This document shows, piece after piece, positions 1 to 54,325 of a stretch of 64,000 nucleotides of DNA. The notes under the pieces are model-generated. The model was not told the origin of the DNA. It worked only from the letters and a program-made list of their open reading frames with translations, and made no database searches. A program made the position numbers and the translations under genes. Source of the stretch: Candidatus Multivorans sp. (GTDB taxonomy: Bacteria > Acidobacteriota > Thermoanaerobaculia > Multivoradales > Multivoraceae); NCBI GenBank assembly GCA_965219675.1, contig OZ244786.1:1741914-1805913 (forward strand), given 5' to 3'. Within the stretch, counting starts at the first letter, position 1. Every line of letters starts with the position of its first letter.

Positions 1-77
1 AGCAAGCACTGGAGCGTCTTCCACCGAGCAGGGGCGGAGTCGAGGCGGAGTACTGGCGTGCCCGACTGGGTGCGGCC

Positions 78-1577
78 ATGGAGGCTCTTTCACGCTGTGT
101 CGTGCGTCTCGATTCCCACGAAGTGGAGGAAGTGCTGGAACTTGCAAAGCGCCTCTACGGTGACGCTCGAGTGACGGCCGATCTGAGCTTCTGGGATGCC
201 CTGCGGAATCTCCTCCAGAGATCGTGGGAGGCTCTGCCTCGTACAACCCAGGAGCGACACGTACTCGATCTGCTAGGGCTACCTATCGTCGGGCTCGACG
301 ACTTCTCGGTGGGCCGGCCAGTTGCCAAGTTCCGGGAACCTGCCTGGATACTGGAGCGGCCCTCGGACGATAGGCGATGTCCTGCTCCCGAGCGCTCCGA
401 AGAGAATGCGCAACAGTGGCGAGCAGTAGTAGACCTTCTGATCCGAGCCTTGGAGGCCGGCGGCGAGGCCCGGGAACGAGCCTCGGGACGACTTTCGGTG
501 ATGGCGTCATGGAAGCGGTTCACAGTCGCAGAAGAGATTGGGCTAGCGGCCGCATTGTGGGGGTCGAGTTGGCAGCAGACTTCCATGCTCCCGGAGAACA
601 CGAAGCTCCGGCCGTGGGTGTTCGCCAAGCTGCCTGAGCCCAAGCCGGGTGTCGCGCTGGAGCGGCTTCGTGCCTCATGGGGCGACCGGCTCGACTGGAG
701 CCAGGTGGGGCAGGAGGCCCACGAGAAGCTGCTCGCGAATGCAGGAGATGCCCTCGCTGCGCTTCGGCAGCGCGGTGTTCGACTCGCGCTCACGAGCGAC
801 GAAGTGGAAGTCTTGCGTATGGCCGTGGAGCGCTGGGCAGAGTCGGATCTGCATCCGATCCTGCCCTGGGAAGCGTCTGAGAAGGCCCGCCCGCGAGCCG
901 AGGCACTGTACGGTGTAGCGACGTTGCTGCTCAAGTTTGAGGTGTCGCCGGTCGCCGCTCGGGCTTTGGGGCAGCGCGTGCGACAGGAACGCGACGCAGA
1001 GACTCCAGCCTACCAACTGACGCCCGGGATTCTGCGCTCGGATGGTGCGCAGCTTGATGCGCTCGCCTCGCTGCTCCGGACCGGGCTCGCCAGCACGGTC
1101 AGAGCTGCGCTTGACAGTGCCGCCAGTGGTCTGTTCCTCTGGCTTCGGGAAGCGAGGCGATCTGAGCCATTTGTCCCGGCGGTCCCAGAGGAGGTGCTTG
1201 CCGAGATTGGCGTCATTCTCGCCAATCGAAGGTGGCCTTCTATCTCTAGTGCTCTGCAAATCGCTGCCTGGGTCTACGGGGACGGGAGTGCCGAGCAACG
1301 CGCTGTTCTAAGGGCGCCCCTGTTGGAGAGCCTCGGGCAGTTCATCGAAGAGCTCGTGTACGAGGAAGACTTCGACCAGCACCCTTTCTTCAAGCGACCG
1401 TGGGTCGATCACGAGGAGGTCGATGTGCCGCTGCTTCGCTGGCGCTGCGCCAAGCTGGCGATGGCGATGGAGGCCGCTGGTCTGGGGGAGGAGCCAGTCG
1501 TAGCGAGGTGGATTAGAGAGGCGGAGAGGGATCCATTACCTGAGATGCGGTACATCGCGGAGGGATGGGAGGGCTAG
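78..1577 (+). CDS. Hypothetical protein, predicted all-alpha-helical and about 500 aa. The reading frame stays open to position 1, so the gene may start upstream of the window.
   Basis: 499-aa ORF with no recognisable catalytic motifs. There is no in-frame stop between nt 3 and the first ATG at 78. It is convergent with the TIR gene. Confidence 0.5.
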   Translation: MEALSRCVVRLDSHEVEEVLELAKRLYGDARVTADLSFWDALRNLLQRSWEALPRTTQERHVLDLLGLPIVGLDDFSVGRPVAKFREPAWILERPSDDRRCPAPERSEENAQQWRAVVDLLIRALEAGGEARERASGRLSVMASWKRFTVAEEIGLAAALWGSSWQQTSMLPENTKLRPWVFAKLPEPKPGVALERLRASWGDRLDWSQVGQEAHEKLLANAGDALAALRQRGVRLALTSDEVEVLRMAVERWAESDLHPILPWEASEKARPRAEALYGVATLLLKFEVSPVAARALGQRVRQERDAETPAYQLTPGILRSDGAQLDALASLLRTGLASTVRAALDSAASGLFLWLREARRSEPFVPAVPEEVLAEIGVILANRRWPSISSALQIAAWVYGDGSAEQRAVLRAPLLESLGQFIEELVYEEDFDQHPFFKRPWVDHEEVDVPLLRWRCAKLAMAMEAAGLGEEPVVARWIREAERDPLPEMRYIAEGWEG

Positions 1578-1822: not shown

Positions 1823-2719
1823 TCACTTTCCCGTCGGCGACTCGCCGTCCTCTCGGATGATCTGAATGCGCCCGTTCCCAAGGTGCAGGACACAACTGGG
1901 TTCGCCACGTACTACAACCACGGTCGCCATCGGCCAGTCGACTAGCTCTCCCCCTATCGTGCGCTGTAACTCCTCAGGACGTCCATGCACCGTCCAGCCC
2001 TGCACGCGAAGCTCCTCAAGCTGCTCCGAGAGTTGACTGGCAGCCTCCGCTCGCTGAAGTGGGCCAAGCTCGTCCCAAATGTCCGACCAGTCGGTCAGAT
2101 CCTGCTGGAAGCCGCCGATAAGGCTCACGTCCTCGTCGCGCGGCTCGTCCTTGAAGAAGAAGAAAGCGCATCGACCCAGCAGCTCCGCGAGTTCAGCTCC
2201 TGTCGTGATACGAGCAACTTCGGCCTTCTGGAGGTCTTCCGCTAGTTCCTGAACATGTGTGATTGCCTGCTGAAGAAGATCAGGCGCGATGACTCTCAGC
2301 AATCCCGTAACGACCACGGAGATTCCGTCCTGCCACTTTAGAGCTACACGATCCGCTAAGCGCGGCGAGTGGCGACGCACGTCTTCCGCGTCAACGTCAT
2401 GCCAAACAGGAAGGATGAGATTCTGTCCGTCTTGCTCCCGCTGCGCCAACCCGTCGAGTTCCGACTCCGGATAGTGCTTCCCGAAGAAGCTCTCGGAGAG
2501 TATGACTACACCGAACTTGCATCGCGTCAGCCCGGCATCGACCTTCCTCCGTAGGCGATCTCCGACACGGAGTTCCATCTCGTCGTACCACACTCGAAGC
2601 CCCAGGTCGCGGAGGAAGGTGGCCAAGGGCCGAGCCACTTCTTCTTGATCTTCCCACGCATAGCATACGAAGACATCCCATTCCTTGGTTTCTTCGCTGG
2701 TGGTTTCGGCTTTCGGCAT
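1823..2719 (-). CDS. TIR-domain protein: an N-terminal TIR domain plus an uncharacterised C-terminal domain of about 140 aa.
   Basis: The track ORF is 1823..2815. I chose the internal ATG at 2719, which gives MPKAETTSEETKEWDVFVCYAWEDQEEVARPLATFLRDLGLRVWYDEMELRVGDRL...VVILSESFFGKHYPESELDGL...ILPVWHDVD. These are the classic bacterial TIR box motifs, including the SxxFxxSxxxxxEL glutamate region. Confidence 0.8.
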   Translation of the reverse strand: MPKAETTSEETKEWDVFVCYAWEDQEEVARPLATFLRDLGLRVWYDEMELRVGDRLRRKVDAGLTRCKFGVVILSESFFGKHYPESELDGLAQREQDGQNLILPVWHDVDAEDVRRHSPRLADRVALKWQDGISVVVTGLLRVIAPDLLQQAITHVQELAEDLQKAEVARITTGAELAELLGRCAFFFFKDEPRDEDVSLIGGFQQDLTDWSDIWDELGPLQRAEAASQLSEQLEELRVQGWTVHGRPEELQRTIGGELVDWPMATVVVVRGEPSCVLHLGNGRIQIIREDGESPTGK

Positions 2720-2971
2720 GGCGGGCTGTGTCCTAGATGATGGTTCGCCGCGGGTGCTCGTTGATCTGGCAGGCGACGGGCCGACGCTGTCTTTGTAGGC
2801 GGGCGGGAGCTGCACCCCATCGCCGGAGCGCTGAGAGGGCCTTCAGGAGCGTCCCAGACGCCCCGGCCCGGCAGATCCCGTCCGTAACTGGCGACCTGGA
2901 TACTGCCACAGGACCGTGCTCCGGGCGCCGCTGCGTCGGTAGTAGCCGGCTCTCATAGGCTACGCGCCGTC

Positions 2972-5236
2972 GTGGAGTTCCGTATCGCCGACACGTTCAC
3001 CGCCAGCCTCGCTCGCCTGCGGGCGGACGAGCAGAAGGCCGTCAAGACGACGGCGTTCGACCTGCAGGTGAATCCGGCGCGGCCGGGGCATCGCCTGCAT
3101 CGGGTCGAGTCGGCGCGGGACAGGAAGTTCTGGTCGGTGCGGGCGGGCCGGGACCTGCGGATCATCGTCCATCGGACGGCGGCGGACTTCCTGCTCTGCT
3201 ATGTGGATCATCACGACCGGGCGTACCGCTGGGCAGAGCGGCGACGCCTGGAGCGGCATCCGCGCACGGGCGCGGCGCAGTTGGTGGAGATTCGGGAGGT
3301 CGTTCGGGAAGTCACTCTAGAGGTAGAGGTGCCGTTCCCCGTGCCGTCGCAGCCGGAGGCGACGGCCCTCGAAGACGCGGTAGAGGCGTCGCCGGCGCCT
3401 GTGTCTGCGCCCGTCGAGGTGCCTTCCGGGGGTCCTGCTGCGTCTGCTGCCGCAGCGCCGCCGGCCGAACCGGCGAAGCTGGCCGGGCCGCCTCTGTTCG
3501 CCAACCGGACGGACGAGGAGTTGTCGAGCTACGGTGTGCCGGCCGACTGGATCGGCGAGGTGCGGACGGCCACGGAGGAGTCGCTGCTCGAGACGGCGGA
3601 GCACCTGCCGGCGGAAGCCGCCGAGGCGCTCTTGGAACTGGCTAAGGGGGGCACGCCGGCGATTCCGCCGCCATTGCCTCCGGCCGCGGACCCATTCGAT
3701 CACCCCGACGCCGGGCGGCGGTTCCGGACGATGGCCGACCGCGAGGAACTCGAACGGGCCCTGGACGCGCCGTGGGAGAAGTGGACGGTCTTCCTGCATC
3801 CGACGCAGCGGGAACTGCTCGAGCGGGACTACGGTGGCCCGGCGCGGGTCGCGGGGTCGGCGGGGACCGGCAAGACGATCGTGGCGTTGCACCGGGCGGT
3901 GCATCTTGCGTCGGAGGATCCGGATTCCCGCGTGCTGCTCGCGACGTTCTCGACGCCCCTGGCCAACGCGTTGCAACGGCGATTGAGGCTGCTGCTCGGC
4001 AGTCGACCGCGTCTGGGCGAGCGAATCGAGGTCCACTCGATGGCCGGTCTTGCGGAGCGCCTCTACCGACTCAACCTCGGATCGCTCAGCCAGGCGTCCG
4101 AAGAGCAGCAGCGCGAGTTGCTCCGCAGCGCGGCCGCGAACGTCGCGGACGACGGCTTCTCGCACCGCTTCCTCTGGGCGGAGTGGAGCGGCGTGGTGGA
4201 CGCCTGGCAGCTCGGGAACTGGGAGGAGTACCGGGCCGTGCCGCGTCTCGGTCGTCGGACCCGGCTGGCCGAAGCTCGCCGGGAGGTTCTTTGGAGGATC
4301 TTCGCCAAGGTGCGGGACGAACTGGAGAGACAGGATTTCCTGACGACCGCCGGCATGTTCCGCAGGCTGGAGGACCACTTCAATCACGCTCGGAAACCGC
4401 CCTTCGACTACTGCGTGATCGACGAGGCGCAGGACATCAGCGTCGCCGAGCTGCGGTTCCTGGCGGCGCTCAGCGAGGATCGGCCGAACAGCCTGTTCTT
4501 CGCCGGCGACCTGGGCCAGCGCATCTTCCGCGCGCCGTTCTCGTGGCGGAAGCTGGGCGTCGATGTGCGGGGCAGGTCGCACACGCTGCGGGTCAACTAC
4601 CGCACGTCGCACCAGATTCGCCGGCAGGCGGATCGCCTGCTGCCGGCCAGGATCGCGGACGTCGACGGCATCGAGGAGGAACGGCGGGGCACGGTGTCCG
4701 CGTTCAACGGACCGGCGCCGGAGATTCGGGTTGTCGAGTCCGAGGAAGCGGAGATTGCGGACGTGAGCGAATGGCTTCGCGATCTGCTGCAGGCGGCGGG
4801 AACGTCCTTTTCGGAGGCAAGGCCCGATGACGCCGATGAAGACGCAGGCGGACTGCGCCCTGGAGAGACCGCTGTCTTCGTCCGGTCGTCACGCAAGGTC
4901 GAACGTGCGCTTCGGGCAGTGGCGGCGGTGGGACTTGACGCTGCCCCATTGGACGCGGGCGAGACCACGGGGCCGGGCTTTGTGGGTGAGGCGGTCGTCG
5001 TGGGCACGATGCACCGCGCCAAGGGTCTGGAGTTCCGCGCCGTTGCGGTCATGGCATGCGACGACGAGGTGTTGCCGCTCCAGGCGAGGATCGAGAACGT
5101 TGTGGACGAGGCGGACCTGGAGGACGTCTACAACACGGAACGCCATCTGCTGTACGTGGCTTGCACCCGTGCCCGCGAACATCTCCTGGTAACCGGCGTC
5201 AAACCGGCCTCTGAGTTCTTGGACGACCTGACGTAG
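2972..5236 (+). CDS. Superfamily-1 UvrD/Rep-like DNA helicase with an N-terminal RelE/ParE-like toxin-fold domain and an Ala/Pro-rich linker.
   Basis: GTG start. The N-terminal ~100 aa read ...RKFWSVRAGRDLRIIVHRTAADFLLCYVDHHDRAY, a RelE/ParE-like pattern. Helicase motifs are present: Walker A GSAGTGKT, motif II VIDEAQD, motif IV-like NYRTS and motif VI TMHRAKGLEF. Confidence 0.85.
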   Translation: MEFRIADTFTASLARLRADEQKAVKTTAFDLQVNPARPGHRLHRVESARDRKFWSVRAGRDLRIIVHRTAADFLLCYVDHHDRAYRWAERRRLERHPRTGAAQLVEIREVVREVTLEVEVPFPVPSQPEATALEDAVEASPAPVSAPVEVPSGGPAASAAAAPPAEPAKLAGPPLFANRTDEELSSYGVPADWIGEVRTATEESLLETAEHLPAEAAEALLELAKGGTPAIPPPLPPAADPFDHPDAGRRFRTMADREELERALDAPWEKWTVFLHPTQRELLERDYGGPARVAGSAGTGKTIVALHRAVHLASEDPDSRVLLATFSTPLANALQRRLRLLLGSRPRLGERIEVHSMAGLAERLYRLNLGSLSQASEEQQRELLRSAAANVADDGFSHRFLWAEWSGVVDAWQLGNWEEYRAVPRLGRRTRLAEARREVLWRIFAKVRDELERQDFLTTAGMFRRLEDHFNHARKPPFDYCVIDEAQDISVAELRFLAALSEDRPNSLFFAGDLGQRIFRAPFSWRKLGVDVRGRSHTLRVNYRTSHQIRRQADRLLPARIADVDGIEEERRGTVSAFNGPAPEIRVVESEEAEIADVSEWLRDLLQAAGTSFSEARPDDADEDAGGLRPGETAVFVRSSRKVERALRAVAAVGLDAAPLDAGETTGPGFVGEAVVVGTMHRAKGLEFRAVAVMACDDEVLPLQARIENVVDEADLEDVYNTERHLLYVACTRAREHLLVTGVKPASEFLDDLT

Positions 5237-5265: not shown

Positions 5266-6306
5266 ATGGCAATCACCCGACTCCGGCTGCAGCGCTTTAG
5301 CGCCTTCGACGACTTCGACTTCGAACCCTCACCGGGCATCAACGTCCTGATCGGCGCCAACGGCACGGGCAAGACCCACCTGATGAAGGTCGCCTATGCC
5401 GCGTGCGATGTCAGCAAGACGGGCACCTCATTCGCTGAGAAGCTCATCCGGGTGTTCCTTCCGTCCGGCGGCGCTCTGGGCCGCTTGGTCAAACGGCAGC
5501 AGGGCAGCTCTCGGTGTGGGATCGAGATCCATCGGCGCCGGGGGCGGGGTTCTGCGAAGCTGACGGCGTCCTTCTCGAATCACGCGTCGGTGCCGAAGTC
5601 CGCGACGGTCAGGGGCACCAAGAACTGGTACGGCGCGCCGCTTGAGAGCGTCTTCATTCCCGTCAAGGAGATGCTGGCCAACGCGCCAGGATTCCGCTCT
5701 CTCTACTCCCAGCGAGAAGTTCACTTTGAGGAGGTGTATGCGGACATCCTCGATCGCGCCTACCGGCCGGCGTTGCGGGGCGCGCCCGATCAGTACCGGA
5801 AGCGGCTCATGGAGATCCTGCAGCGCGCGATGGCGGGCACGGTCACCGTGCGCAACGAGGAGTTCTTTCACTACAGCAGGCAGGGCCGTTTGGAGTTCTC
5901 GCTCCTTGCGGAAGGTATGCGGAAGCTGGGGCTGCTCTGGCTGCTGGTTCAGAACGGGACCTTGCTCAAGGGATCGGTGCTCTTCTGGGACGAGCCCGAG
6001 ACGAATCTTCATCCCAAGCTCTTCGGTGGGCTCGCCGACATCTTCGGCCAACTCCAGCAGGCGGGCATCCAGATCTTCCTCGCCACGCACGACTACACGA
6101 TGCTGAAGGAACTCGACCACAGGGTTGCGGGGCGAAGGGAGAGCGAGATCACGTTCCATTCTCTGTACCGCGAATCCGATAGCGGAAGGGTCCTTTGCAA
6201 GGGTTCAAGGAGTTACGCCGCCATTGCTCCGAACACGATCGCGGATGTCTTCTCCGATCTCTACGACAGGGAGGTCGCGCGCAGCCTAAAGGACCTCGGC
6301 CGATGA
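5266..6306 (+). CDS. ABC-type ATPase of the AAA_21/AAA_15, OLD/SMC-like class. It has the ATPase domain only, with no fused nuclease.
   Basis: Walker A LIGANGTGKTHL, Walker B/D-loop LFWDEPETNLHP and H-loop FLATHD. It starts 30 nt after the helicase stop. Confidence 0.8.
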   Translation: MAITRLRLQRFSAFDDFDFEPSPGINVLIGANGTGKTHLMKVAYAACDVSKTGTSFAEKLIRVFLPSGGALGRLVKRQQGSSRCGIEIHRRRGRGSAKLTASFSNHASVPKSATVRGTKNWYGAPLESVFIPVKEMLANAPGFRSLYSQREVHFEEVYADILDRAYRPALRGAPDQYRKRLMEILQRAMAGTVTVRNEEFFHYSRQGRLEFSLLAEGMRKLGLLWLLVQNGTLLKGSVLFWDEPETNLHPKLFGGLADIFGQLQQAGIQIFLATHDYTMLKELDHRVAGRRESEITFHSLYRESDSGRVLCKGSRSYAAIAPNTIADVFSDLYDREVARSLKDLGR

Positions 6307-6716
6307 TCAACCTGCAGGAGGGCGATCTGCGCGTCACGCTTCCAGGGTTGGGACGGGCGAGGAAGTTCGACGACTCGGCGAACCACGGCTTGAGCCACTG
6401 CATGAAGGCCGTCGACTTCGTCGTGGAGTTCGAGCGGAGCCGGCTGTTCCTGGAGATCAAGGATCCGGGGCATCCTCGGGCACGGTCGTCGGACCGGGCC
6501 TCCTTCGTGCAGAGGTTCCAGTCCAGTCGGCTGGACGGCGACCTCGTCCAGAAGTATCGCGACTCGTTTCTCTACGAGTGGGCTTGCGAGAACCTCGAGA
6601 AGCCGATTCACTATTGGGTTCTCGTGGGCATCGACAGCCTCGGCCCGCCCGACCTCCTCGCTAGGACCGACGCGCTCAAGAGGAGGCTGCCGGTCGGGAA
6701 GGCAACGGGGTCGTAG
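6303..6716 (+). CDS. Small hypothetical protein of about 137 aa, probably a partner of the upstream ATPase and possibly a nuclease-like module.
   Basis: ATG at 6303 overlaps the ATPase stop (ATGA), which suggests translational coupling. Sequence features are MINLQEGDL... and VDFVVEFERSRLFLEIKD, a D..E.K arrangement reminiscent of PD-(D/E)xK. The ORF-track start at 6195 has an arginine-rich extension that is probably not real. Confidence 0.5.
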   Translation: MINLQEGDLRVTLPGLGRARKFDDSANHGLSHCMKAVDFVVEFERSRLFLEIKDPGHPRARSSDRASFVQRFQSSRLDGDLVQKYRDSFLYEWACENLEKPIHYWVLVGIDSLGPPDLLARTDALKRRLPVGKATGS

Positions 6717-6945: not shown

Positions 6946-8061
6946 ATGTCGGCGATCAGCAACCTCACGATCGAGGGGTTCAAGAGCTTCCGGCGCCTGG
7001 AGCGGCTGGAACTTGGTCCGCTGAACCTTCTGATCGGCGCCAACGGTTCGGGCAAGTCGAACCTCCTCGCGGCCTTCGACCTGCTCGCGAGGGCGTGCAG
7101 CGCTCAGCAGCTCTCGGTCTATGTGGGGAAGGCGGCCGGCGCCGACCGCCTGCTGCACTACGGCCCCAAGATGACGCAGAGCATCCGCTTCCAAGTCGGT
7201 TTTGAGGACGGGCTGGCTGGTTTCACTCTCCTCCTGCGGCACGCTGCCGAGAACCGTCTCTTCTCGAGTTTGAGTATCGAGGGAGGCGAGTTGCCGAGAG
7301 ACTTCGTCGACCAACTTGAGGTGGAGGCCGGCGTTGCCCCGCTCAGTGAGTTTCTCGACCTGAGGCTGGCGGGCTGGCAGGCGTATCACTTCGCCGACAC
7401 GGGTCGGGCTTCGCCCATTAAGACGACGGCGAACCTCAACGACAACCGGCGCCTGCGGCCCGACGGCGCCAATCTCGCCGCGTTCCTGCACCTGCTGCAG
7501 GTGAGGCACAGGATCGCCTATGGCCAGATCCGCCGGACGGTCCAGTTGGCGGCGCCCTTCTTCGATGACTTCGTTCTCGCGCCGCTGGCCCTCAATCCGG
7601 AGACCATCCAACTCGAGTGGCGGCACGTCCGCTCCGACGCCCACTTTGGCGCGTCCTCGTTGTCGGACGGAACCTTGCGGTTCATGGCGCTCGCGACACT
7701 GCTTCTTCAGCCAGCCCAACTCCGGCCCAAGCTGATCCTGCTCGACGAGCCGGAACTTGGCCTGCATCCGTATGCGGTCACCCTCCTCGCAGCCATGCTC
7801 AGAGAGGCGTCGGTGGAGTCGCAGCTCGTTGTGGCGACTCAGTCGCCATTGCTTCTCGACCATTTCGAGCCGGAAGAGGTGCTGGTGACGGACCGCCAAG
7901 ACGGCGCCACGACCGTCCGAAGGCTGTGCAGCGAGAGTCTGAAGGTGTGGTTGGACGAGTACAGCCTGGGTGAACTCTGGGAGAAGAACGAGTTCGGCGG
8001 CCGGCCCGTTCCCGAAACTTCCGGCGAAGGTGCACAGGCCCGGCTCACCGCGAGCGTTTGA
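6946..8061 (+). CDS. Second ABC-type ATPase of the AAA_21 class, a paralogous fold to the 5266 gene.
   Basis: Walker A LLIGANGSGKSNLL, signature-like SDGTLRFMALATLL, Walker B LILLDEPELGLHP and VVATQSP. The 371-aa ORF is separated from upstream genes by 230 bp. Confidence 0.8.
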   Translation: MSAISNLTIEGFKSFRRLERLELGPLNLLIGANGSGKSNLLAAFDLLARACSAQQLSVYVGKAAGADRLLHYGPKMTQSIRFQVGFEDGLAGFTLLLRHAAENRLFSSLSIEGGELPRDFVDQLEVEAGVAPLSEFLDLRLAGWQAYHFADTGRASPIKTTANLNDNRRLRPDGANLAAFLHLLQVRHRIAYGQIRRTVQLAAPFFDDFVLAPLALNPETIQLEWRHVRSDAHFGASSLSDGTLRFMALATLLLQPAQLRPKLILLDEPELGLHPYAVTLLAAMLREASVESQLVVATQSPLLLDHFEPEEVLVTDRQDGATTVRRLCSESLKVWLDEYSLGELWEKNEFGGRPVPETSGEGAQARLTASV

Positions 8062-19068: not shown

Positions 19069-20361
19069 GTGTTCGCGGCTTCTTCCTACGATCTGATCGT
19101 GATCGGCGCCGGACCGGGCGGCTCGGCGGCTGCCGCCATCGCCTCGCGCGGAGGCCTGCGCACGCTTCTGCTCGAGCGCGAGCCGGCGCCGAACTTCAAG
19201 ATCGGCGAATCCCTGATGCCGGACACGCACGGCGTGTTCGAGAAGATGGGCGCGTTGGAGCGGATGAAGAGCAGCCACTTCGTGGAAAAGCACTCGGTTC
19301 AGTTCTTCACCAGGACGGGCAAGGCGTCCATGCCGTTCTACTTCGAGAAGGAAAGGCCGGGGGACGACAGCGCTCGGACCTGGCAGGTGCGCCGCTCGGA
19401 GTTCGATCAGCTCCTGATGGAAACGGCCGCCGAGCAGGGCGCGGAGGTGCACAGGGGGGTCAATGTACGCGACGTGCTGTTCGAGGACGGTCGGGCGATC
19501 GGCGTGCGTGCCGCGGCCGCGGACCACGGCGACCCGGTTGAGCTCGCGAGCCGGGTCGTCATCGACGCCACCGGCCAGAGCGCGCTGCTGTCGCGACGCC
19601 TCAACCTTGGTCGGGTGGACTACGGTCTAAGGCACGCCTCGATCTACACCCATTTCCGCGGCGCGCTCCGGGACGAAGGAAAGGACGAGGGCGCGACCCT
19701 GATTCTGCACACGGAGTCCGGTGAGTGCTGGTTCTGGTACATCCCGCTGGCCGGGGATGTGGTCAGCGTCGGGGTCGTCGGACCGATGGACGCCCTGATT
19801 CGGAACCGTGACGGAAGACCGCACGAGATCTTCTTCGAGGAGGTCGGGAACTGCGCCGAGATCGAGCGGCGGATCGGGCCAGCCCGCCAGTGCCGTCCGG
19901 TATCGGTGATGAAGGACTTCTCCTACCGGATCGAGGAGATGGCCGGTAACGGCTGGATCGCGATCGGCGACGCGTTCTCCTTCATCGATCCCGTGTACTC
20001 ATCCGGCGTGTTCCTGGCTCTCAAGTCCGGCGAGATGGCGGCGGAGGCCGCGATCGACGCGATTGCCGCCGGCGATGCCTCGGGTGAGCGTCTGGGAGCG
20101 TTCCAGCCGCTGCTGATGCGGGGCGTCGAGGCGGTGCGTCAGTTGGTCAACGTCTTCTACGACCCGAACTTCAGCGTCGGCGCCTTTCTGCGGCTGTATC
20201 CGCAGCACCAGAGCAAGGTGACGCGCATTCTGATCGGCGACGTGTTCGAACTGGACTTCACCTCCATGTTCGAGGACATGGCGACCTTTGCCGCAGCGGG
20301 GGGTGGCCGAATCGCTCAGCCGGCGGCGGGCGAGACGGCCCGGGCCGTACCCGTGTCCTGA
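19069..20361 (+). CDS. Flavin-dependent halogenase-like FAD oxidoreductase (tryptophan-halogenase / geranylgeranyl-reductase superfamily).
   Basis: FAD-binding GxGxxG in LIVIGAGPGGSAAA. WxWxIP motif (CWFWYIPL). FxxPxxSxG-like GDAFSFIDPVYSSGV. Confidence 0.8.
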   Translation: MFAASSYDLIVIGAGPGGSAAAAIASRGGLRTLLLEREPAPNFKIGESLMPDTHGVFEKMGALERMKSSHFVEKHSVQFFTRTGKASMPFYFEKERPGDDSARTWQVRRSEFDQLLMETAAEQGAEVHRGVNVRDVLFEDGRAIGVRAAAADHGDPVELASRVVIDATGQSALLSRRLNLGRVDYGLRHASIYTHFRGALRDEGKDEGATLILHTESGECWFWYIPLAGDVVSVGVVGPMDALIRNRDGRPHEIFFEEVGNCAEIERRIGPARQCRPVSVMKDFSYRIEEMAGNGWIAIGDAFSFIDPVYSSGVFLALKSGEMAAEAAIDAIAAGDASGERLGAFQPLLMRGVEAVRQLVNVFYDPNFSVGAFLRLYPQHQSKVTRILIGDVFELDFTSMFEDMATFAAAGGGRIAQPAAGETARAVPVS

Positions 20362-20393
20362 CCGGCGTCTGAACGGGGAACGGAACGGAATCC

Positions 20394-20678
20394 ATGGCGG
20401 CGACGGTAGTTCGGCGGCTGGCGTACGCGACCCTGGCGGTTCTGTACGTGCTCCACAACGATCTCTGGTTCTGGTCCGACGGTGACCGCTTTCTCGGGCT
20501 GCCGATCGGATTGACTTACCACATCCTCTTCACGGCGGCGGTCGTTCTGGCCATGTGGTGGCTGGTTCGAGAGGCATGGCCCGCCGCCAGCCTGGATCGC
20601 CTGGCGGCCGGCGCCGGAACCGAGCCGGCCGCGGACATCGGCGTAGGGCACGGCGGGTCTCCCGAAGGTTCCGGATGA
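20394..20678 (+). CDS. Small two-TM membrane protein of the DUF3311-like type that typically precedes sodium:solute symporters.
   Basis: 94-aa hydrophobic ORF ...LAYATLAVLYVLHNDLWFW...LTYHILFTAAVVLAMWWL. Its stop overlaps the start of the symporter (ATGA). Confidence 0.6.
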   Translation: MAATVVRRLAYATLAVLYVLHNDLWFWSDGDRFLGLPIGLTYHILFTAAVVLAMWWLVREAWPAASLDRLAAGAGTEPAADIGVGHGGSPEGSG

Positions 20679-22132
20679 CTCTGGCCATCATCTTCGTCTA
20701 TCTGCTCGCGGTGCTTCTGATCGGTGCCTGGAGCAGCCGGCGGCTCGCCGCGACGGGCGAGGACTTCTTCGTCGCCGGGCGGACGATCGGTCCGTTCGTG
20801 CTCCTGATGACCCTGTTCGGCACCCACATGACCTCGTTCGCCCTGCTCGGCGCCTCGGCGGAGTCGTACCGGGTAGGGATCGGCGTCTTCTCCCTGATGG
20901 CGTCGTCGTCGGCCCTGATGGTGCCCGTCGTGTTCTTCTTCGTCGGCACCCGGGTCTGGGCGGTCGGCAGCCGCCTGGGGCTTCTCACCCAGGTCCAGTT
21001 CGTGCGCGCGCGCTGGGGCTCGGACACGGTCGGCCTGCTGCTGTTCATCGTGCTCGTCCTGCTGCTCGCCCCCTACCTGCTGATCGGCGTGATGGGCGGC
21101 GGCATCACGCTCCAGCAGATCACCGACGGCGGAGCGCCGCCGTGGCTCGGCAGCCTGCTGATTTCCGGCGTCGTGATCGGCTACGTGACGAGCGGCGGTC
21201 TACGTGGAACGGCCTGGGTGAACACCTTCCAGACGGCGATGTTCATGCTGCTCGGCGCGGTGACGGCGATCCTGATCGTCACGAAGCTGGGGGGCGTGGG
21301 GAAGGCGCTCGACCAGGTCGCCGCGACGCGGCCGGAGCTGTTGATACGCGGCGACGCGATCCACCCGCTGCGGCTGCTCAGCTACACCCTGATCCCGTTG
21401 TCCGTCGGGACGTTCCCCCACATCTTCTCGCACTGGCTTTCCGCACGGCGGGCATCCACGTTCAAGGCCCCGATCGTGCTCTACCCGGTTTGCATCGCCA
21501 TGGTGTGGATCCCAAGCGTGCTGTTGGGTCTGTTCGGGAACATCGACTTTCCCGGGCTCGCCGGACCAGCCTCCAACTCGGTCCTGATTCGAATGATCAC
21601 CCTGTACGCTCCCGATCTTCTCGCCGGTTTGCTCGGTGCGGGGGTCTTCGCCGCGATCATGTCGTCGCTCGACTCGCAGTCGCTGTCCCTGGGGACGATG
21701 TTCACCCAGGACATCGTGCGCCACTACCGCTGGGGAGGCGACCTGAGCGACTCCCGCCAGGTTCTGCTTGGCCGGCTGTTCGTGGTCGGCGTCGTGGCTG
21801 CCGTCTTCCTCCTTTCCCTGGTCGCCGAGCGGAGCATCTTCGCGCTGTCGGTATGGTCCTTCACGGGCTTTGCCTCGCTGTTGCCCATCATCGTCGCGGC
21901 GCTCTACTGGCGCCGCAGCACGGCCGCGGGGGCCGCCGCCGCGATCGTCACCGTGATCGTGCTCTGGATCTGGTTCTTCGTTCGCGGGTTCGGTCAGCCG
22001 GACTACAGCGTGGGCGGCAGCGGCGTGATGCCGGTGGCCGTGATCTTTGCCGGCTCGGTCGCGGCTCTGGTCGTCGGTTCCCTGTCCAGCAGGCCGCCCG
22101 GTGCCGAGCGGGTGGCACGTTTCATCCCATGA
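20675..22132 (+). CDS. Sodium:solute symporter (SSS family).
   Basis: The internal ATG at 20675 gives MTLAIIFVYLLAVLLIGAWSSRRLAATGEDFFVAGR... with multiple TM segments. The 5' part of the track ORF from 20555 is arginine-rich junk. Confidence 0.85.
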   Translation: MTLAIIFVYLLAVLLIGAWSSRRLAATGEDFFVAGRTIGPFVLLMTLFGTHMTSFALLGASAESYRVGIGVFSLMASSSALMVPVVFFFVGTRVWAVGSRLGLLTQVQFVRARWGSDTVGLLLFIVLVLLLAPYLLIGVMGGGITLQQITDGGAPPWLGSLLISGVVIGYVTSGGLRGTAWVNTFQTAMFMLLGAVTAILIVTKLGGVGKALDQVAATRPELLIRGDAIHPLRLLSYTLIPLSVGTFPHIFSHWLSARRASTFKAPIVLYPVCIAMVWIPSVLLGLFGNIDFPGLAGPASNSVLIRMITLYAPDLLAGLLGAGVFAAIMSSLDSQSLSLGTMFTQDIVRHYRWGGDLSDSRQVLLGRLFVVGVVAAVFLLSLVAERSIFALSVWSFTGFASLLPIIVAALYWRRSTAAGAAAAIVTVIVLWIWFFVRGFGQPDYSVGGSGVMPVAVIFAGSVAALVVGSLSSRPPGAERVARFIP

Positions 22133-24219: not shown

Positions 24220-27200
24220 GTGAGTGCGTCCAGGCCCGGCGGAACTCTGCCCAGTCTGCGGCACTACTGGCGCTCGAACGTCGCCGTCGTGATGACTGCC
24301 GCCGTCGCGGCGTCCGTGCTCACCGGCGCCCTGATGGTTGGCGACTCGGTGCGAGGAAGCCTGCGGGATCTGACCCTGGACCGTCTTGGCGGCATCGACC
24401 ATGCACTCCTCGGCGCCGGCTTCTTTCGCGAGGCGTTGAGGGACGACCTGACGGATGATCCCGAGTTCGCTTCCCGATACGGCCCCGTGTCGGCGGCGAT
24501 CCTGATGCAGGGGAACGTGGTAGAGCCCGAGAGCGGCCGGCGCGCGGCGCGCGTCAATGTCCAGGGGATCGACGACAGCTTTGCCGCCTTCTTTCCGGGA
24601 ATGGAGGAGACCCTCGACCTGTCCCGGCGGGACGGTCAACTGTTCGCGTCGCTGGCGATCAACCGGTCGCTCGCCTCGGCTCTTGCCGTCGAGCCCGGTG
24701 ACTCCGTTCTGCTCCACCTGGAGCGTCCGAGCGAGGCGCCGCGCGCCAGCCTGATGGGGGAGAAGGATCCCGAAGACCAGTTGGAGAGCGTGCGGCTGAG
24801 CGTGGTCACCGTGCTGGAAGACGTTGGCGCGGGACGGTTCCAGCTCGCCCAGCACCAGAGCCAGCCGCTGGTTGCCTATCTCCGCCTGCGCGACCTGCAG
24901 CGGGAACTCGATCGCCGCGGCCTCGCCAACGCGTTGTTGGTGGGCGAGCGGGCGAGCACCGGGTCCGGTCCGGTTGCCGACCCGGAGGCCGCGATAGAGG
25001 ACGTCGAGCGCCGCATCCGCACCCACGCCGAGGTGGCCGACTTCGGACTCACGCTCGAGGCGACAGACGATCACCTGCTCGTGACGACGTCCCAGATCAT
25101 TCTCGGCGCCGAGTTGGCCGGGGAGCTCCAGGCTGCGGCCTCGGCGGCTGGCGCCGAAGCGATCGAGGTCTCGACCTACCTCGCCAACCTGGCGGCGGCG
25201 GACAGCGGCGCGGCCGCACCGTACTCGACGATCACGGCACTCGACACGGCGCGCGCTGGCCGACTTGGCGCCCTGCGGCTCACGGACGGCCGACCGGCTC
25301 CCGGGCTCGGGCCGGGTGAGGTGCTCGTCAACTCCTTTCTGGCCGAAGATCTCGCGGTCGGAACGGGCGACCGACTGGCGATCGACTATTTCCAGCTTGG
25401 CGACCGGGAGCAGTTGATCGAACGGACGGTCGAGACCAGGGTCGCCGGAGTCGTCGAGATGACGGGCTGGGGCGTCGACCGAACGTTGACGCCGGACTTT
25501 CCCGGGGTCGCCGACGCGGACAACATGAGCGACTGGGATCCGACCTTTCCGGTCGATCTGAGCCGGATCCGGGATCAGGACGAGGCCTACTGGGACGAGT
25601 TCCGCGCCACCCCCAAGCTGTTCGTCGGTCTGGACTACGGGGCCGGGCTCTGGTCGAGCCGCTTCGGCCACCTGACCTCCCTGCGGCTTCTGCCGCCGGA
25701 AGGCACGACACCGGCAGAACTCCGGGAGAGGCTCGAAGAGGGGTTGCCGGACCGGGTCGCGCTCCACGCGGCAGGTCTCGCGGTGGAACCGGTCAAGGCC
25801 AGGGGCCTGCGCGGCGCGTCGGGGGCTACGGACTTCGGCGGCCTCTTCGTGGGCTTCAGCCTCTTTCTCATCGTGTCGGCGGCGTTGCTGGTAGGTCTTT
25901 TCTTCCGGCTGGGAACCGAGAGCCGCGCGAACGAGATGGGACTCCTGCTTGCGCTTGGCTACGGTGTCGCAAGGGTCCGGCGCCGCTTCCTGCTCGAAGG
26001 AGCCCTTCTGGGCGGCGCTGGCGTGCTCCTCGGCCTGGGCGGCGCGGTGCTCTATGCGGGCGCCATGATGACCGCGCTGCGGACCCTGTGGCGCTCCGCG
26101 GTCGGCTCGAGTCACCTCTACCTGCACGTCGAACCCCTGACGCTGGTCTTGGGCGGCGCGGCGTCCATTCTGGTCGTGCTGTTCGCGATCCGGGGTGCCG
26201 TCGGCCGCCTTGCCGCGGTCTCGCCGATCCGGCTGCTGCGCGGAGAGACGTCGGACCGGCCGGCCGCGGCGCGGACGCGGGGGCGACGGGCCCGCTGGAC
26301 CGCGAGCGTTGGCGGCGGGGTCGCCGCGGTGCTCCTCGGGGCCTCGGCGGTGGCGCCGGCGTCCATCGCTGCCTACCTGTTCTTCGGTGGCGGCGCCTGC
26401 CTCCTGATCGCCGGCCTGGCCGGCTTCACCCTCTGGCTCCGAAGGCGGCCCCCGGCGCCGCTCGAGAGCTGGTCCTTGCGGGCCGGTTCAAGAATGGCCG
26501 CGGCCAACGCCTCTCTCAATCCGGGCCGGAGTCTGCTTTGTGCGGCCCTGGTAGCCAGCGCATCGTTCGTGATCGTGGCCGTAGGCGCCTATGGCTTGCG
26601 CTTCGGCGAGGAGACGCGCGATCTCGACTCGGGCGCCGGCGGCTTCGACCTGGTCGCGGAAGCGGACGTTTCGATTCTCGCCGATCTCACCACGGTGAAT
26701 GGACGCTACGAGCTGGGGTTCGGCGAGGAAGGGTCCGGGCTCATCGGACAGAGTCAGGTCATCGCCTTCCGTACCGTGCCCGGTGACGACATCAGTTGCC
26801 TGAACCTGTTCCAGCCGGAACGACCGCGGTTGCTGGGGGCGCCGCCGGAACTCATCGAACGGGGCGGCTTCCGGTTCCAGGCGCTCGCGGAGAACGCCGG
26901 GGATGAGCCGTGGAAACTGCTGGAGGAGGATCTCGGGCCGGGAGTCGTCCCCGCGATCGGCGACTTCAACTCGGTCATGTGGATCCTGCACTCGGGACTG
27001 GGGCAGGGGATCGAGATCGAAACCGAACGGGGCGACACGCTGGAGCTCAGACTGGTCGGATTGCTTCGCAAGAGCGTGTTCCAGAGCGAACTCGTGATTT
27101 CGGAAGCGAACCTGGCAAGGCACTTTCCGAGCCGCACCGGAGCCTCGTACTTCCTGCTGCGGACGCCGCCGGGCGAACGGGACCGGACGTTGGAGGAACT

Positions 27201-39284: not shown

Positions 39285-42200
39285 ATGCGGGTTGTTTCCT
39301 TCGCCACGCGGCGACCGGTCACCGTGTTCATCTTCGCCCTCGCGGCGGTGGTCTTCGGCGGCGTCGCCTTCCGGGACCTTGCGGTCGACCTGCTGCCGGA
39401 CATCACCTATCCGTCGCTGACCGTCCAGACGGGGTACGAAGGCGCCGCGCCGGTCGAGATGGAGACCCTGATCACGCGGCCGGTCGAGGACGCGGTAGGG
39501 GTGGTCAACGGGGTCAACCGGGTCATCTCGAGTTCCCGGGCGGACATCAGCGAGGTCACGCTGGAGTTCTCCTGGGGCACGAACATGGACTTCGCCTCGC
39601 TCGACGTGCGCGAGCGTCTGGATCAGGTGCGGTTGCCGATCGCGGCCGACAGGCCGGTCCTGCTGCGCTACGACCCGTCGCTCGACCCGATCCTGCGGAT
39701 GGGGCTATCCGGCGGCGGCGACGACCTGATCGCTCTGCGCCTCCTGGCCGAGGAGGATCTGAAGCGGAAGCTCGAGCGCCTGGAGGGCGTGGCGGCCGTC
39801 GTCGTGAGTGGCGGTCTCGAGGAGGAGATCCAGGTCGAGATCGACGAGCGGCGCCTGACCAGTCTGGGCCTCACGATGAACCAGGTGATGAACCGTCTGG
39901 CGCAGGAGAACGTGAATCTCACGGGCGGCCGGCTGCGCGACGGCCAGACCGACTACCTCGTGCGAACGATCAACGAACTGCTGCGGCCGGAAGAGATGCG
40001 GGAGATCGTGATCGATCGTTCCCAGGGGGCGATCGTGCGTCTCGAGGACATCGCCCGCGTCTACCAGGGCGCCCGGGAACGCGAGGTGATCACGCGGATC
40101 GACGGCCGGGAGGCCGTGGAGATCGCGGTCTACAAGGAGGGCGGCACGAACACGGTGACCGTCGCATCCGCCGTTCTCGACCGGGTGGAAGGACTCGTGG
40201 AGGAGATCAGACAGATCGATCCCCAGCTCGAATTGAGCGTCCTCACCGACCAGTCGCGCTACATCCGCGACTCCGTGTCGGCGGTGATCGAGACCGCCCT
40301 GATCGGCGGCTCGCTGGCGATCGTCGTCCTGTTCCTCTTCCTGCGCAGCGCGCCGAAGACGCTGATCATCGGGATCTCGATCCCGGTCTCCGTCGTCGCG
40401 ACCTTCTTCCTGATGTATGTCGCCGGCGTGTCGCTCAACATCATGTCGCTCGGCGGGATCACGCTCGGCATCGGTCTCCTGCTCGACAACTCGATCGTCG
40501 TCCTGGAGGCGATCCAGCGCCGTCGCGACCAGGGTCTGGGCGTCGTCGAGGCGGCCCGTGCCGGCGCTTCCGAAGTCGGCCGGGCGGTGATCGCCAGCAC
40601 GATCACGACCGTCTGCGTGTTCGTGCCGATCGTCTTCGTCGAGGGCGTCGCCGGTCAGATGTTCGGCGACCAGGCGTTGACCGTGACCTTCTCCCTGCTG
40701 GTGTCGCTCGGGGTCGCGCTGACCGTGATCCCGATGCTCGCGTCACGGAGGTTCTTCGCCGCCGGGGCGGAGGTCGAGGCCGTCGAGAGCGCGGGCCGCT
40801 CCAACCCGGTGACCCGAGCCATCTCGGGCTTGTTCAGCGCGTTGGGAGTCGGGATCGCCCTGGTCGTGAAGCATGTCTTCCGCGGCGTTGCCGCGATCAT
40901 GTCCGTGCTGCTCCGGCCGGTGCTCGCCGCCTTCGACGCGCTGCTCCAGGGCATCACGGCGGTCTACGCCCGCGTCCTTCGCGGGGCCCTGCGCCACCCC
41001 GTCCTGGTCGTCCTGGTGGCCGTGGCGCTGCTCGCGGGGAGCGTCCAGCTCGTGGGCTCGCTCGGCAGCGAACTCGTGCCGGAACTGATTCAGGGCGAGT
41101 TCTACGTCGACGCCGAACTGGCGCCCGGGAGCCGGCTGGAGGTCACGGATCGCCGGCTCGCGACGATCGACAAGCGCGTGCGCGAGTTTCCCGAGGAGTT
41201 CGGCGTGCAGTCGGTCTACACGGTGGTCGGTACCTCGAACGAGCAGGGAGGCGCGGCCGGCGAGAAACGGGAGAACATCGGCCAGGTCAACGTGCGGATG
41301 GAACCGCCGATCGATGCCGAGCGCGAGGAGCTGGTGATGAGCCGGATCCGGTCCCTGATCGATGCGGAGAACGCGTCCTTCGACCGCCAGGCGCCGCCGG
41401 TCGCCGGCGCGGCGTCTGCTCCGGTCGGAGCCGCCGGCGCCGGATCGCTGCTCGGCGACGATTCCCTGAAGTACCGCTTCGGCCGTCCGACCTACTTCAG
41501 TTTCCGGAGTCCGGTCGAGGTGCAGATCCGTGGCCACAACCTGGCGTTGCTGGAAGTGCTTGCCGATCAGGTCGCGGCCCGGATGCGCGAGGTCGAGGGG
41601 CTGGTCGACGTCAAGTCATCGACCGAAGGCGGCAACCCGGAACTTCAGATCATCTTCGACCGGGAGCGGCTGTCCACCTTGAACTACACGGTCGCGGAGC
41701 TTGGAGCCGTCATCCGGTCCAAGGTGCAGGGCGACATCGCGACGGACATCGTGCGCGAGGATCGGAACATCGAGGTCCGGATGCGGGCGGACGAGGGCTT
41801 CCGCGACTCGGTCCGCGATCTCCGCAACCTGAACGTCCGCCAGAGCGGTGCTGTGCCACTGCCTCTCTCGGCGGTGGCGGAAGTGATCGAGACGGAAGGG
41901 CCGGCCGAGATTCGCCGCAGCGACGGCGGCCGGGTCGCGCTGATCGAGGCGAACATCGTCGGCCGCGATCTGGGCAGCGTCTCCGACGACATTCAGGCCA
42001 TCCTGGACTCGACCCGGTTCCCGGTCGGCTTCGACTACTCGGTCGGCGGTCAGCGCCAGGAAATGGAGCGCTCCTTCGACAGCATGCGACTCGCGATCCT
42101 GCTCGCCGTGTTCATGGTCTACCTGGTCATGGCCTCCCAGTTCGAATCGCTGCTGCACCCATTCGTCATCCTGTTCGCCGTGCCGTTCTCGATCATCGGC

Positions 42201-43965: not shown

Positions 43966-44415
43966 ATGACGAAGAAGAGAAGGTGGAACGAGACGACCGT
44001 CGGCCTCTCGTTGCTGCTGACTGTGGCGTTCGTCGCGACGCCAACTCTCGCGCAGGCCGAGCGGGACCGGGACGAGCTCGTTGAGCCTGCCATCGAGACG
44101 CCGCTCGATGCGTTCGACGAGCTTCCTGCCGCAGTCTCGTACGCCGAAGGGCCTGTGCCTGACCTGGCATTCGGGACCCCGAAGTGTCGCGCCGTTACGG
44201 CCGCGCTTTCCTCGGGCAACTCCGACGAGTGCCTCGAGTGTCAACGGTCCTGCATGGCGGAGTGGCGGGAGTGCCGCCGCGGCTGTGCGAGTGCGGATCC
44301 CGATGACTGGATCCCGTGTCATGAGGCATGCGCCGATGCGCTCGTTTGGTGCCAAAGCTCGGGCTGCAGTGGGGCATGCGGCTCGTCTTCCACTTCTTCA
44401 GGATCCACTAGGTGA
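43966..44415 (+). CDS. Small secreted cysteine-rich protein (149 aa).
   Basis: Strong Shine-Dalgarno AAAGGAGG 5 nt upstream. Signal peptide VGLSLLLTVAFVATPTLAQA. 10 Cys in the C-terminal 70 aa (CLECQRSCMAEWRECRRGCA...CHEACADALVWCQSSGCSGACG). Confidence 0.6.
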   Translation: MTKKRRWNETTVGLSLLLTVAFVATPTLAQAERDRDELVEPAIETPLDAFDELPAAVSYAEGPVPDLAFGTPKCRAVTAALSSGNSDECLECQRSCMAEWRECRRGCASADPDDWIPCHEACADALVWCQSSGCSGACGSSSTSSGSTR

Positions 44416-52074: not shown

Positions 52075-52078
52075 TGCG

Positions 52079-53575: not shown

Positions 53576-53590
53576 CGAGCCGTTCGGACC

Positions 53591-54325
53591 ATGCTTGAAC
53601 TCCGGTCGGTCGGCATGCGGTTCGGCGCGGTCGAGGCGCTGCTCGGCGTCGATCTGGAAGTCGGCGCCGGCGAGGTCGTGGGACTCATGGGTGACAACGG
53701 CGCCGGCAAATCGACCCTGCTGAAGATCGTGGCCGGGAACTTCGCCCCGACGACGGGCCGGGTGCTGTGGGACGGGGCGGATGTCGAACTCTCGCCGCTG
53801 TCGGCGCGAGGGCGCGGCATCGAGGCGGTGTACCAGGACCTGGCGCTCTGCGACAACCTCTCGGCGGCCGCCAACGTGTTCCTGGGCCGCGAGTTGAGGC
53901 GCCGGCTGTTGGGAATCTTGCCGGTGCTGGATCACGGCGCCATGCGGCGGAGATCGACGGAGCTCTTCGAGGAACTCGGCTCGGACACCCGGGCGGACGA
54001 TCTCGTGCGGCAGATGTCCGGTGGTCAGCGCCAGGCCGTGGCCATCGCACGCGCGCGCTTGAGCTCTCCGCGGCTGATGCTGCTCGACGAACCGACCGCC
54101 GCGATCAGTGTCCGCCAGATCGCCGAGGTCCTCGAGCTGATTCGCGGATTGAAGGAGCAGGGCGTGGGCATCCTGCTCATCTCGCACCGCATGTCGGACG
54201 TGTTCGCGGTCGCGGATCGCGTCGCCGTTCTGCGGCGAGGGCGCAAGGTGGCGGACAAGGCGACAGCGGAGTCGTCGCCCGAGGAGGTGACGGCCCTGAT
54301 CACCGGCGCGCTCGAAGCCGCGTGA
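53591..54325 (+). CDS. Sugar-type ABC transporter ATP-binding protein (single domain).
   Basis: Walker A GDNGAGKST, signature MSGGQRQ and Walker B LMLLDEPTAAI. Confidence 0.9.
   Translation: MLELRSVGMRFGAVEALLGVDLEVGAGEVVGLMGDNGAGKSTLLKIVAGNFAPTTGRVLWDGADVELSPLSARGRGIEAVYQDLALCDNLSAAANVFLGRELRRRLLGILPVLDHGAMRRRSTELFEELGSDTRADDLVRQMSGGQRQAVAIARARLSSPRLMLLDEPTAAISVRQIAEVLELIRGLKEQGVGILLISHRMSDVFAVADRVAVLRRGRKVADKATAESSPEEVTALITGALEAA

Follow-up and report, generated by a model that had tools for sequence, protein, structure and literature searches.

A TIR-domain protein with an undescribed, sensor-like C-terminal domain in a mosaic defence island of Candidatus Multivorans

The stretch of DNA analysed here, referred to as the window, comprises 64,000 nucleotides of Candidatus Multivorans sp. 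(Acidobacteriota; contig OZ244786.1, positions 1,741,914 to 1,805,913). Near its start, at 1823..2719 of the minus strand, lies a gene of 298 amino acids (aa) with its ATG at 2719 and its stop codon at 1823-1825. The protein joins an N-terminal TIR domain to a C-terminal domain (CTD), and the gene is called the TIR-CTD gene. The TIR domain occupies aa 14-140 (2300..2680). It is followed by a linker at aa 141-167 (2219..2299), which is mostly one long helix (aa 146-166) in the full-length AlphaFold2 (AF2) model, and by the CTD at aa 168-290 (1850..2218), supported by an AF2 model of the CTD alone and by profile search; all three parts are read from the minus strand. The window contains exactly one copy of the CTD. 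By analogy with described systems, the gene probably encodes a single-gene effector-plus-sensor immune protein, which is a known kind, carrying an unclassified sensor-like domain.

The reading frame of the TIR-CTD gene is open beyond the ATG at 2719, up to an upstream GTG at 2815. The ATG is the likely start because the start-matched homologues P0001 and P0005 begin alike, and because an AGGA at 2731-2734 (minus strand), 11 nt from the ATG, is also found upstream of the gene in two related loci, L001 and L002. This AGGA lies within the intergenic region (2720..2971) that separates the gene from a divergent helicase gene, and the region is 98.4% identical in DNA sequence to its counterpart in L002. 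A consensus scan around the gene detected no promoter-like (sigma-70-like) or terminator-like sites. The full-length homologues, of 283-300 aa, span 93-100% of the window protein. In public annotations, members of the family appear only as ‘TIR domain-containing protein’, ‘HNH endonuclease’ or ‘helix-turn-helix transcriptional regulator’.

The closest non-identical relatives, P0004-P0027 (about 405 aa; loci L010, L011 and L012), carry an additional N-terminal DUF2513 domain ahead of the TIR and CTD regions. The assignment lies just under the Pfam cut-off (E 3e-6), and the literature search returned no paper on DUF2513. No remnant of this domain is present upstream of the TIR-CTD gene of the window.

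The composition of the gene departs from that of its surroundings. A preliminary description, made from the sequence letters, had singled it out as the lowest in GC, and this is confirmed: the gene has a GC content of 59.1% vs 67.6% for the window, and every lowest-GC sliding window of 897 nt in the stretch overlaps it. The four peptide strings quoted in that description are likewise all present in the translation of the minus-strand open reading frame (ORF) that ends at 1823. The GC content at third codon positions (GC3) is 0.66, compared with 0.89-0.93 in three flanking non-defence genes. Measured against the L001 gene, the ratio of nonsynonymous to synonymous substitution rates (dN/dS) reaches 0.12 in the TIR part and 0.31 in the CTD. 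These ratios indicate that the gene is under purifying selection, and that both halves are therefore expressed protein.

On the sequence evidence, the first half of the protein is a conventional TIR enzyme domain that belongs to the AbTir/BtpA/PdTIR clade. The Pfam TIR_2 model, with a cut-off of 28 bits, scores 69.6 bits over aa 16-127. A profile built from 39 family members retrieves AbTIR, TcpB/BtpA and PdTIR from the PDB at E 1e-49 to 1e-55, with AbTIR at 3.9e-55 and TcpB and PdTIR at similar values. The predicted catalytic glutamate, E87, lies in a YPESEL motif and is encoded by a GAA codon at 2459..2461 of the minus strand (ttc on the plus strand). It is invariant in the 39 homologues (alignment A1), and the ELDGL glutamate of the AbTir and BtpA/TcpB chains aligns with it. 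TIR NADases use the glutamate at this position for catalysis.

The window protein has the flavodoxin-like TIR fold, and a fold search with the full-length model returned TIR and flavodoxin-like matches only. A TIR domain with its conserved glutamate had been recognised in the preliminary description, which also named substitution of that glutamate, as a sign of a degenerate fold, as grounds for dismissal. The former assignment holds and the latter concern is removed, as E87 is intact and invariant. Together with the TIR_2 match and the PDB matches within the clade, the invariance of E87 and its alignment with the ELDGL glutamate argue that the fold is not degenerate. Cleavage of NAD+ by this domain is strongly predicted.

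The order of the domains differs from that of the nearest characterised proteins. In AbTir, BtpA (TcpB) and PdTIR, the TIR domain is C-terminal and stands behind an N-terminal region of coiled-coil type. The window protein belongs to the same TIR clade and lacks this architecture of N-terminal coiled coil and C-terminal TIR; its TIR domain comes first and is followed by a 150-aa alpha/beta region absent from those proteins. The best PADLOC model, PDC-S66, also has its TIR domain at the C-terminal end (positions 139-263 of 282), the reverse of the order in the window protein. Only these positions are matched, by aa 4-128, and the profile as a whole is not. PHROG profiles too place the TIR domain at the C-terminal end. 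In the literature, PDC-S66 is only listed in surveys.

The C-terminal portion is the novel part of the protein. Its ~150 aa have no match in Pfam, NCBIfam, PADLOC or PHROGs, which bears out the preliminary description in finding no recognised family there. An AF2 model of the C-terminal region alone (aa 149-298, 27 homologues) has a mean predicted local distance difference test score (pLDDT) of 92.8 and a predicted template modelling score (pTM) of 0.84. The elements of this model follow in the order of a long helix, a short strand-helix-strand, a long helical hairpin and a four-stranded antiparallel sheet, the last arranged around a 14-residue hairpin. The conserved motifs of the CTD are GGFxQxLxDWxDIW and GWxVxGR. 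No structural neighbour of the model was found among PDB or viral structures.

An exhaustive search of 1.84 billion representative proteins with a CTD profile matched 960 protein clusters at E<=1e-3, of which 550 matched at E<=1e-10. This is the informative search, as a word-indexed protein search with the same profile gave 2 matches only. Since the region folds confidently by itself in the model and 960 clusters match its profile, the CTD is best described as a real, independently folding domain of no described family. A match to a housekeeping family, an outcome considered in the preliminary description, was not seen in the four libraries or among PDB structures.

The CTD is not restricted to TIR proteins. 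Partner domains were counted with Pfam in the best 143 of the 960 profile matches. Xre-type helix-turn-helix (HTH) domains are present in 36 of these, HNH_2 in 34, TIR in 10 and AbiJ_NTD4 in 1. Further partners, read by eye, include a single N-terminal transmembrane (TM) helix, one nuclease-like N-terminus and other HNH variants. The HNH domain joined to the CTD is of the type found in the CBASS Cap5 SAVED-HNH effectors (PADLOC 4.8e-28), and the CTD therefore occupies the place of SAVED in known effectors. The HNH-CTD family alone comprises 882 clusters, and its gene is solitary in each of the four loci examined, three of them chromosomal and one on a plasmid. By analogy, the CTD behaves like the switch domains SAVED, CARF, STING and cyclic nucleotide monophosphate (cNMP)-binding domains, a module swapped between toxic N-terminal modules and HTH domains.

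An HTH protein at 467-1138 of locus L095 is weakly matched by the broad CTD profile (E 2.4e-6). Its gene is one of only five on 3,062-bp ColE1-type plasmids from Enterobacter and E. coli. Should the match prove genuine, the protein would be a convenient model of the HTH-CTD class.

N-terminal domains of AbiJ are met repeatedly around the CTD family. In some proteins (P0042, P0128), AbiJ_NTD4 stands ahead of the TIR and CTD regions, and a gene for AbiJ_NTD3 lies directly upstream of TIR-CTD in L007-L009 (9027-9869 in L007). A gene for AbiJ_NTD4 and Abi_C (4875-5801 in L109) is placed directly upstream of an HNH-CTD gene. This recurrence may be a coincidence of defence islands or a real association.

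The systems with which the CTD shares partners are TIR-SAVED, TIR-STING and Cat1 (CARF-TIR), in which TIR is joined to a sensor that controls oligomerisation. The partners of the CTD mirror those of SAVED and CARF. The CTD itself is not a SAVED, STING, CARF or cNMP-binding domain, by sequence or by fold. No CD-NTase, cyclase or cas operon is present in the window or in the related loci examined. Unlike the SAVED, CARF, STING and cNMP systems, the CTD family has no linked signal synthase in these loci.

These likenesses also allow a different explanation, in which the CTD, like the SAVED, CARF, STING or cNMP-binding domains, would receive a signal in the form of a small molecule or nucleotide. 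The TIR-CTD protein would then be an effector switched on by a messenger that comes from elsewhere: from an unlinked host enzyme, from the phage, or as a metabolite induced by infection. TIR, Cap5-type HNH, nuclease-like domains, the TM helix and Xre-type HTH are the fusion repertoire of the SAVED and CARF sensors, and Cap5-type HNH is a CBASS effector partner. TIR-STING proteins have their TIR domain at the N-terminus, as does the window protein, and the same order is seen in the solved TIR-SAVED chain 7qqk. In the broad family, a few polar positions are conserved, among them D57 (invariant) and R118 (>=90%) of alignment A4. This explanation is considered unlikely, though it is the most probable of the alternatives.

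The two halves of the protein evolve at different rates. Mean pairwise identity is 35% in the CTD and 63% in the TIR domain, and the TIR value is the higher in 98.7% of 741 pairs. The homologue P0003 is 94% identical in the TIR domain and only 64% identical in the CTD. The CTD evolves about twice as fast as the TIR domain, a sensor-like pattern.

Members of the family are found in Longimicrobiales, Latescibacterota, Bacteroidota (Hymenobacter), Anaerolineaceae, which belong to Chloroflexota, and others. In every family locus examined, the GC content of the TIR-CTD gene is below that of the surrounding locus. The flanks of family members contain type I and III restriction-modification (RM) genes, PIN/PhD and HepT/MNT toxin-antitoxin (TA) pairs, AbiJ-type genes, genes of integrative and conjugative elements (ICE) and insertion sequence (IS) elements. 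Composition and patchy distribution suggest that the TIR-CTD gene is horizontally mobile. The flanks differ between loci, which agrees with a single-gene effector-plus-sensor class that has no obligatory partner.

Two described systems provide precedents for such a class. SpbK, carried by the ICEBs1 element of Bacillus subtilis, is a TIR protein whose 4-helix sensor domain docks onto a phage portal and so clusters the TIR domains (PMC12847820). It likewise consists of one gene on mobile DNA which couples a TIR NADase to a small non-catalytic domain, and it serves as the model for the mechanism proposed here. The sensor of SpbK has no homology with the CTD; the likeness is one of function only. 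In the prokaryotic Schlafen protein pSlfn5, a conserved nuclease is combined with a variable C-terminal phage-sensing domain that is quicker to evolve (PMC13056530). The combination of a conserved effector and a faster C-terminal sensor is similar to the TIR (63%) and CTD (35%) of the present family. The differences lie in the effector, a tRNA nuclease in pSlfn5, and in the sensor fold, which is immunoglobulin-like.

Thoeris ThsB is also a TIR protein of defence islands. The PADLOC ThsB models match the window protein at E 3.3e-29 and 1.1e-17, in the TIR part only, and do not cover the CTD. No ThsA with a SLOG or Macro sensor is found among the window neighbours, and none is conserved in 17 family loci. 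Membership of Thoeris, CBASS, Pycsar or type III CRISPR was considered and is rejected. The preliminary description had noted that bacterial TIR proteins act in Thoeris, CBASS and Pycsar-like immunity; the ThsA, cyclase and SAVED, STING or cNMP domains of such systems are missing here.

The TIR-CTD protein is, with a confidence somewhat above even, a self-contained mobile immune protein whose CTD detects infection and brings about the assembly of the TIR domains and the cleavage of NAD+, resulting in abortive infection. From the comparisons above we infer that the protein is an NADase, that its CTD is the sensor, that oligomerisation activates it and that it confers defence. In the uninfected cell, the TIR domains would be held apart or mis-oriented. 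Upon infection, the CTD would bind its trigger, most likely a phage component, and cluster the protein. The clustered TIR domains would then assemble a composite active site around E87, and NAD+ would be hydrolysed or cyclised. The ensuing depletion of NAD+ would arrest the infected cell. The adjacent helicase, the HEC ATPases and Dsr2 would not be needed by the protein. Detection of the cue by the CTD and the assembly that it drives are proposed because the CTD is modular and fast-evolving, with SpbK and Schlafen as precedents.

A broader claim is put forward tentatively, and is held to be rather less than evenly probable. The CTD could be an undescribed sensor without a solved fold relative that defines a one-gene immune class, with TIR, Cap5-type HNH, nuclease-like and membrane effectors, together with Xre-type HTH regulators that respond to the same cue. 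If this is true, the class would reveal a new infection cue or mode of recognition across many phyla. The enzyme half of the protein is familiar; the novelty is the CTD, which occurs in about a thousand clusters and is exchanged among killing modules and DNA-binding domains. SAVED, CARF and STING, whose exchange behaviour is comparable, each opened a new mechanism of signalling or sensing in bacterial immunity. As a small single-gene protein with an easily assayed predicted output (NAD+ loss), the TIR-CTD protein would also be a practical system in which to discover the trigger of the CTD.

Several observations weigh against the reading of the TIR-CTD gene as a mobile, self-contained immune protein. 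The literature search found no paper that describes the CTD. The full-length AF2 model has a pTM of 0.66, which leaves the relative placement of the TIR domain and CTD uncertain. Quick divergence of a non-catalytic domain is expected without an arms race, and the CTD is still under purifying selection, as its dN/dS against L001 attests. The window CTD has no tblastn match in the plasmid and phage records searched, and the viral contigs examined carry relatives of the TIR domain only, none with the CTD. Since neither the family nor the CTD was found in these records and contigs, the mobility of the gene is a matter of inference. The divergent pairing with the helicase, discussed below, is kept even where the TIR proteins are only 72% identical (L001). 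Finally, the commonest partner of the CTD among the best 143 matches is the HTH domain and not an effector. A simple domain with which regulators dimerise or bind a ligand would account for this predominance no less well than an infection sensor.

The last point leads to the explanation that the protein is not immune in function. It would be a NAD-consuming protein similar to AbTir or BtpA, with a regulatory, stress-related or interbacterial role, and the CTD would be a constitutive dimerisation domain shared with Xre-type regulators. The closest relatives by TIR domain, AbTir and BtpA, consist of TIR and a simple coiled coil, and there is no settled view of what they do inside bacteria. The HTH fusions form the largest class among the best 143 CTD matches, and plasmid-borne HTH-CTD-like genes bear the annotation of ordinary regulators. 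The CTD is, however, also joined to toxic modules of defence type (Cap5-type HNH, TM helix), AbiJ N-terminal domains are added in some members, and the genes of the family are repeatedly surrounded by RM, TA, Abi and ICE genes. A mobile accessory gene is indicated by the composition and by the patchy occurrence across phyla. A non-immune role is therefore judged improbable.

The helicase gene that diverges from the TIR-CTD gene encodes a UvrD-type helicase of 754 aa at 2972..5236 of the plus strand (Pfam UvrD-helicase and UvrD_C). On present evidence it is treated as context only. Its PADLOC matches are to GajB-like and NERD+UvrD models, and PHROG 1967, ‘DNA helicase’, matches at 4e-71. An additional N-terminal region of ~100 aa is weakly HigB/RelE-like (Pfam E 0.023) and is followed by an Ala/Pro-rich linker.

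The preliminary description placed the TIR gene divergently to a helicase/ATPase operon. The divergent orientation is correct with respect to the helicase; the genes beyond it belong to two separate candidate defence systems (HEC-02A/B, and HEC-01A without its partner), and a single operon is not supported. The helicase adjoins the TIR-CTD gene divergently only in L001, L002 and L003 besides the window. The TIR proteins are 72% identical to that of the window in L001, and 98% in L002 and L003, and the four loci have flanking core genes in common. Conserved co-occurrence with the helicase operon, proposed earlier as a check, therefore extends to these three close relatives alone. In the 14 other full-length family loci, which come from several phyla, tblastn over as much as 10 kb to either side detected no homologue of the helicase, of Dsr2 or of any HEC protein. 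When all ORFs within 6 kb were clustered across 17 loci, no neighbour recurred beyond the three relatives.

The histories of the two genes also differ. In comparison with L002, DNA identity is 98.8% in the TIR gene, 97.3% in the Dsr2 part and 95.0% in a core glyoxalase gene, and falls to 88.4% in the helicase. The GC3 of the helicase is 0.84 vs 0.66 for the TIR-CTD gene. A helicase partnership of the TIR-CTD gene was considered and is not supported, as the linkage is limited to close relatives and the histories are decoupled. The TIR-CTD gene appears to be a stand-alone module without an obligatory partner, and is treated as such because it has no conserved neighbour and its history is decoupled from that of the helicase.

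A lineage-specific two-gene system made up of the TIR gene and the divergent UvrD-type helicase is accordingly seen as very improbable. In it, the helicase would sense foreign DNA and pass the signal to the TIR protein or receive it from there. Such a system would account for the retention of the divergent pairing, with a spacer of 252-313 bp, in the window and L001-L003 despite the divergence of the L001 TIR protein, and for the matches of the helicase to GajB-like and other defence helicase models. It is opposed by the lack of a helicase homologue in all 14 of the other loci, within the stretches searched (at most 10 kb per side), by the lack of any neighbour in common among family loci, and by the unequal identity and GC3 of the two genes. 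The three linked loci are, moreover, syntenic relatives with the same flanking core genes. In its own right, the helicase diverges from its L002 counterpart more than the flanking core gene does (88% vs 95%), and it may itself be a diversifying defence gene.

The genes on either side of the TIR-CTD gene make up, as judged from their profile matches, a mosaic defence island of Dsr2, TIR-CTD, helicase, HEC-02 and a partnerless HEC-01A. The annotation of the locus is corrected accordingly, from a TIR-helicase system to a mosaic defence island. At 3..1577 of the plus strand lies the C-terminal part (524 aa) of a Dsr2 (SIR2) protein, truncated by the window start and convergent with the TIR-CTD gene; it too is context only. 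The ORF listing gives 499 aa from 78, yet the frame is open to base 3. This part shares 96% identity with a protein of 1260 aa in L002, which PADLOC identifies as Dsr2 at 2.8e-133. Its GC3 of 0.70 is low, as in the TIR-CTD gene.

The proximity of Dsr2 raises the further explanation that the TIR domain is a ThsB-like signal generator, whose cyclic ADP-ribose (cADPR) isomer would activate a separate effector such as the neighbouring Dsr2. The better of the PADLOC ThsB matches to the TIR domain (E 3.3e-29) is in keeping with this, and so is the presence of an adjoining SIR2 protein whose SIR2 part resembles that of ThsA. That cADPR isomers are made by TIR domains of the AbTir clade is said to be the finding of Manik et al. 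2022. Against this, there is no sensor of ThsA type, and the ThsA models cover only the first ~234 residues (SIR2 part) of the Dsr2 protein. Dsr2 is not beside the gene in L001 or in any distant locus, and the TIR and Dsr2 genes are convergent, hence not in an operon. Direct activation of Dsr2 by the tail tube protein of a phage is described in PMC11087589, and this also speaks against activation by a TIR product. The chance that the TIR-CTD gene works in this way is put as slimmer still than that of the helicase pairing, and the self-contained protein remains the preferred reading.

Beyond the helicase, a HEC-02A gene at 5266-6306 (plus strand; PADLOC E 1e-116) is followed by HEC-02B at 6303-6716 (plus strand; E 1.9e-43), the ATG of which, at 6303, overlaps the HEC-02A stop by 4 nt. 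The pair is a candidate two-gene defence system, and it has no counterpart at the matching position in L001 or L002. A HEC-01A ATPase gene at 6946..8061 (plus strand; PADLOC E 2.2e-119) stands without its partner. In L002, a DUF4276 gene after HEC-01A matches HEC-01B at 8.7e-68, and nothing in the window matches this L002 gene. The HEC-01A of the window is followed by the next gene after only 111 bp, and from there on the genes are housekeeping genes. As HEC-01B and HEC-02A/B are present and absent in different combinations, the island varies even among close relatives.

Elsewhere in the window, where the AT skew is generally close to zero, several 1-kb blocks at 20001-22000, 26001-27000, 40001-41000, 44001-45000 and 52001-55000 have strongly negative values (-0.19 to -0.31).

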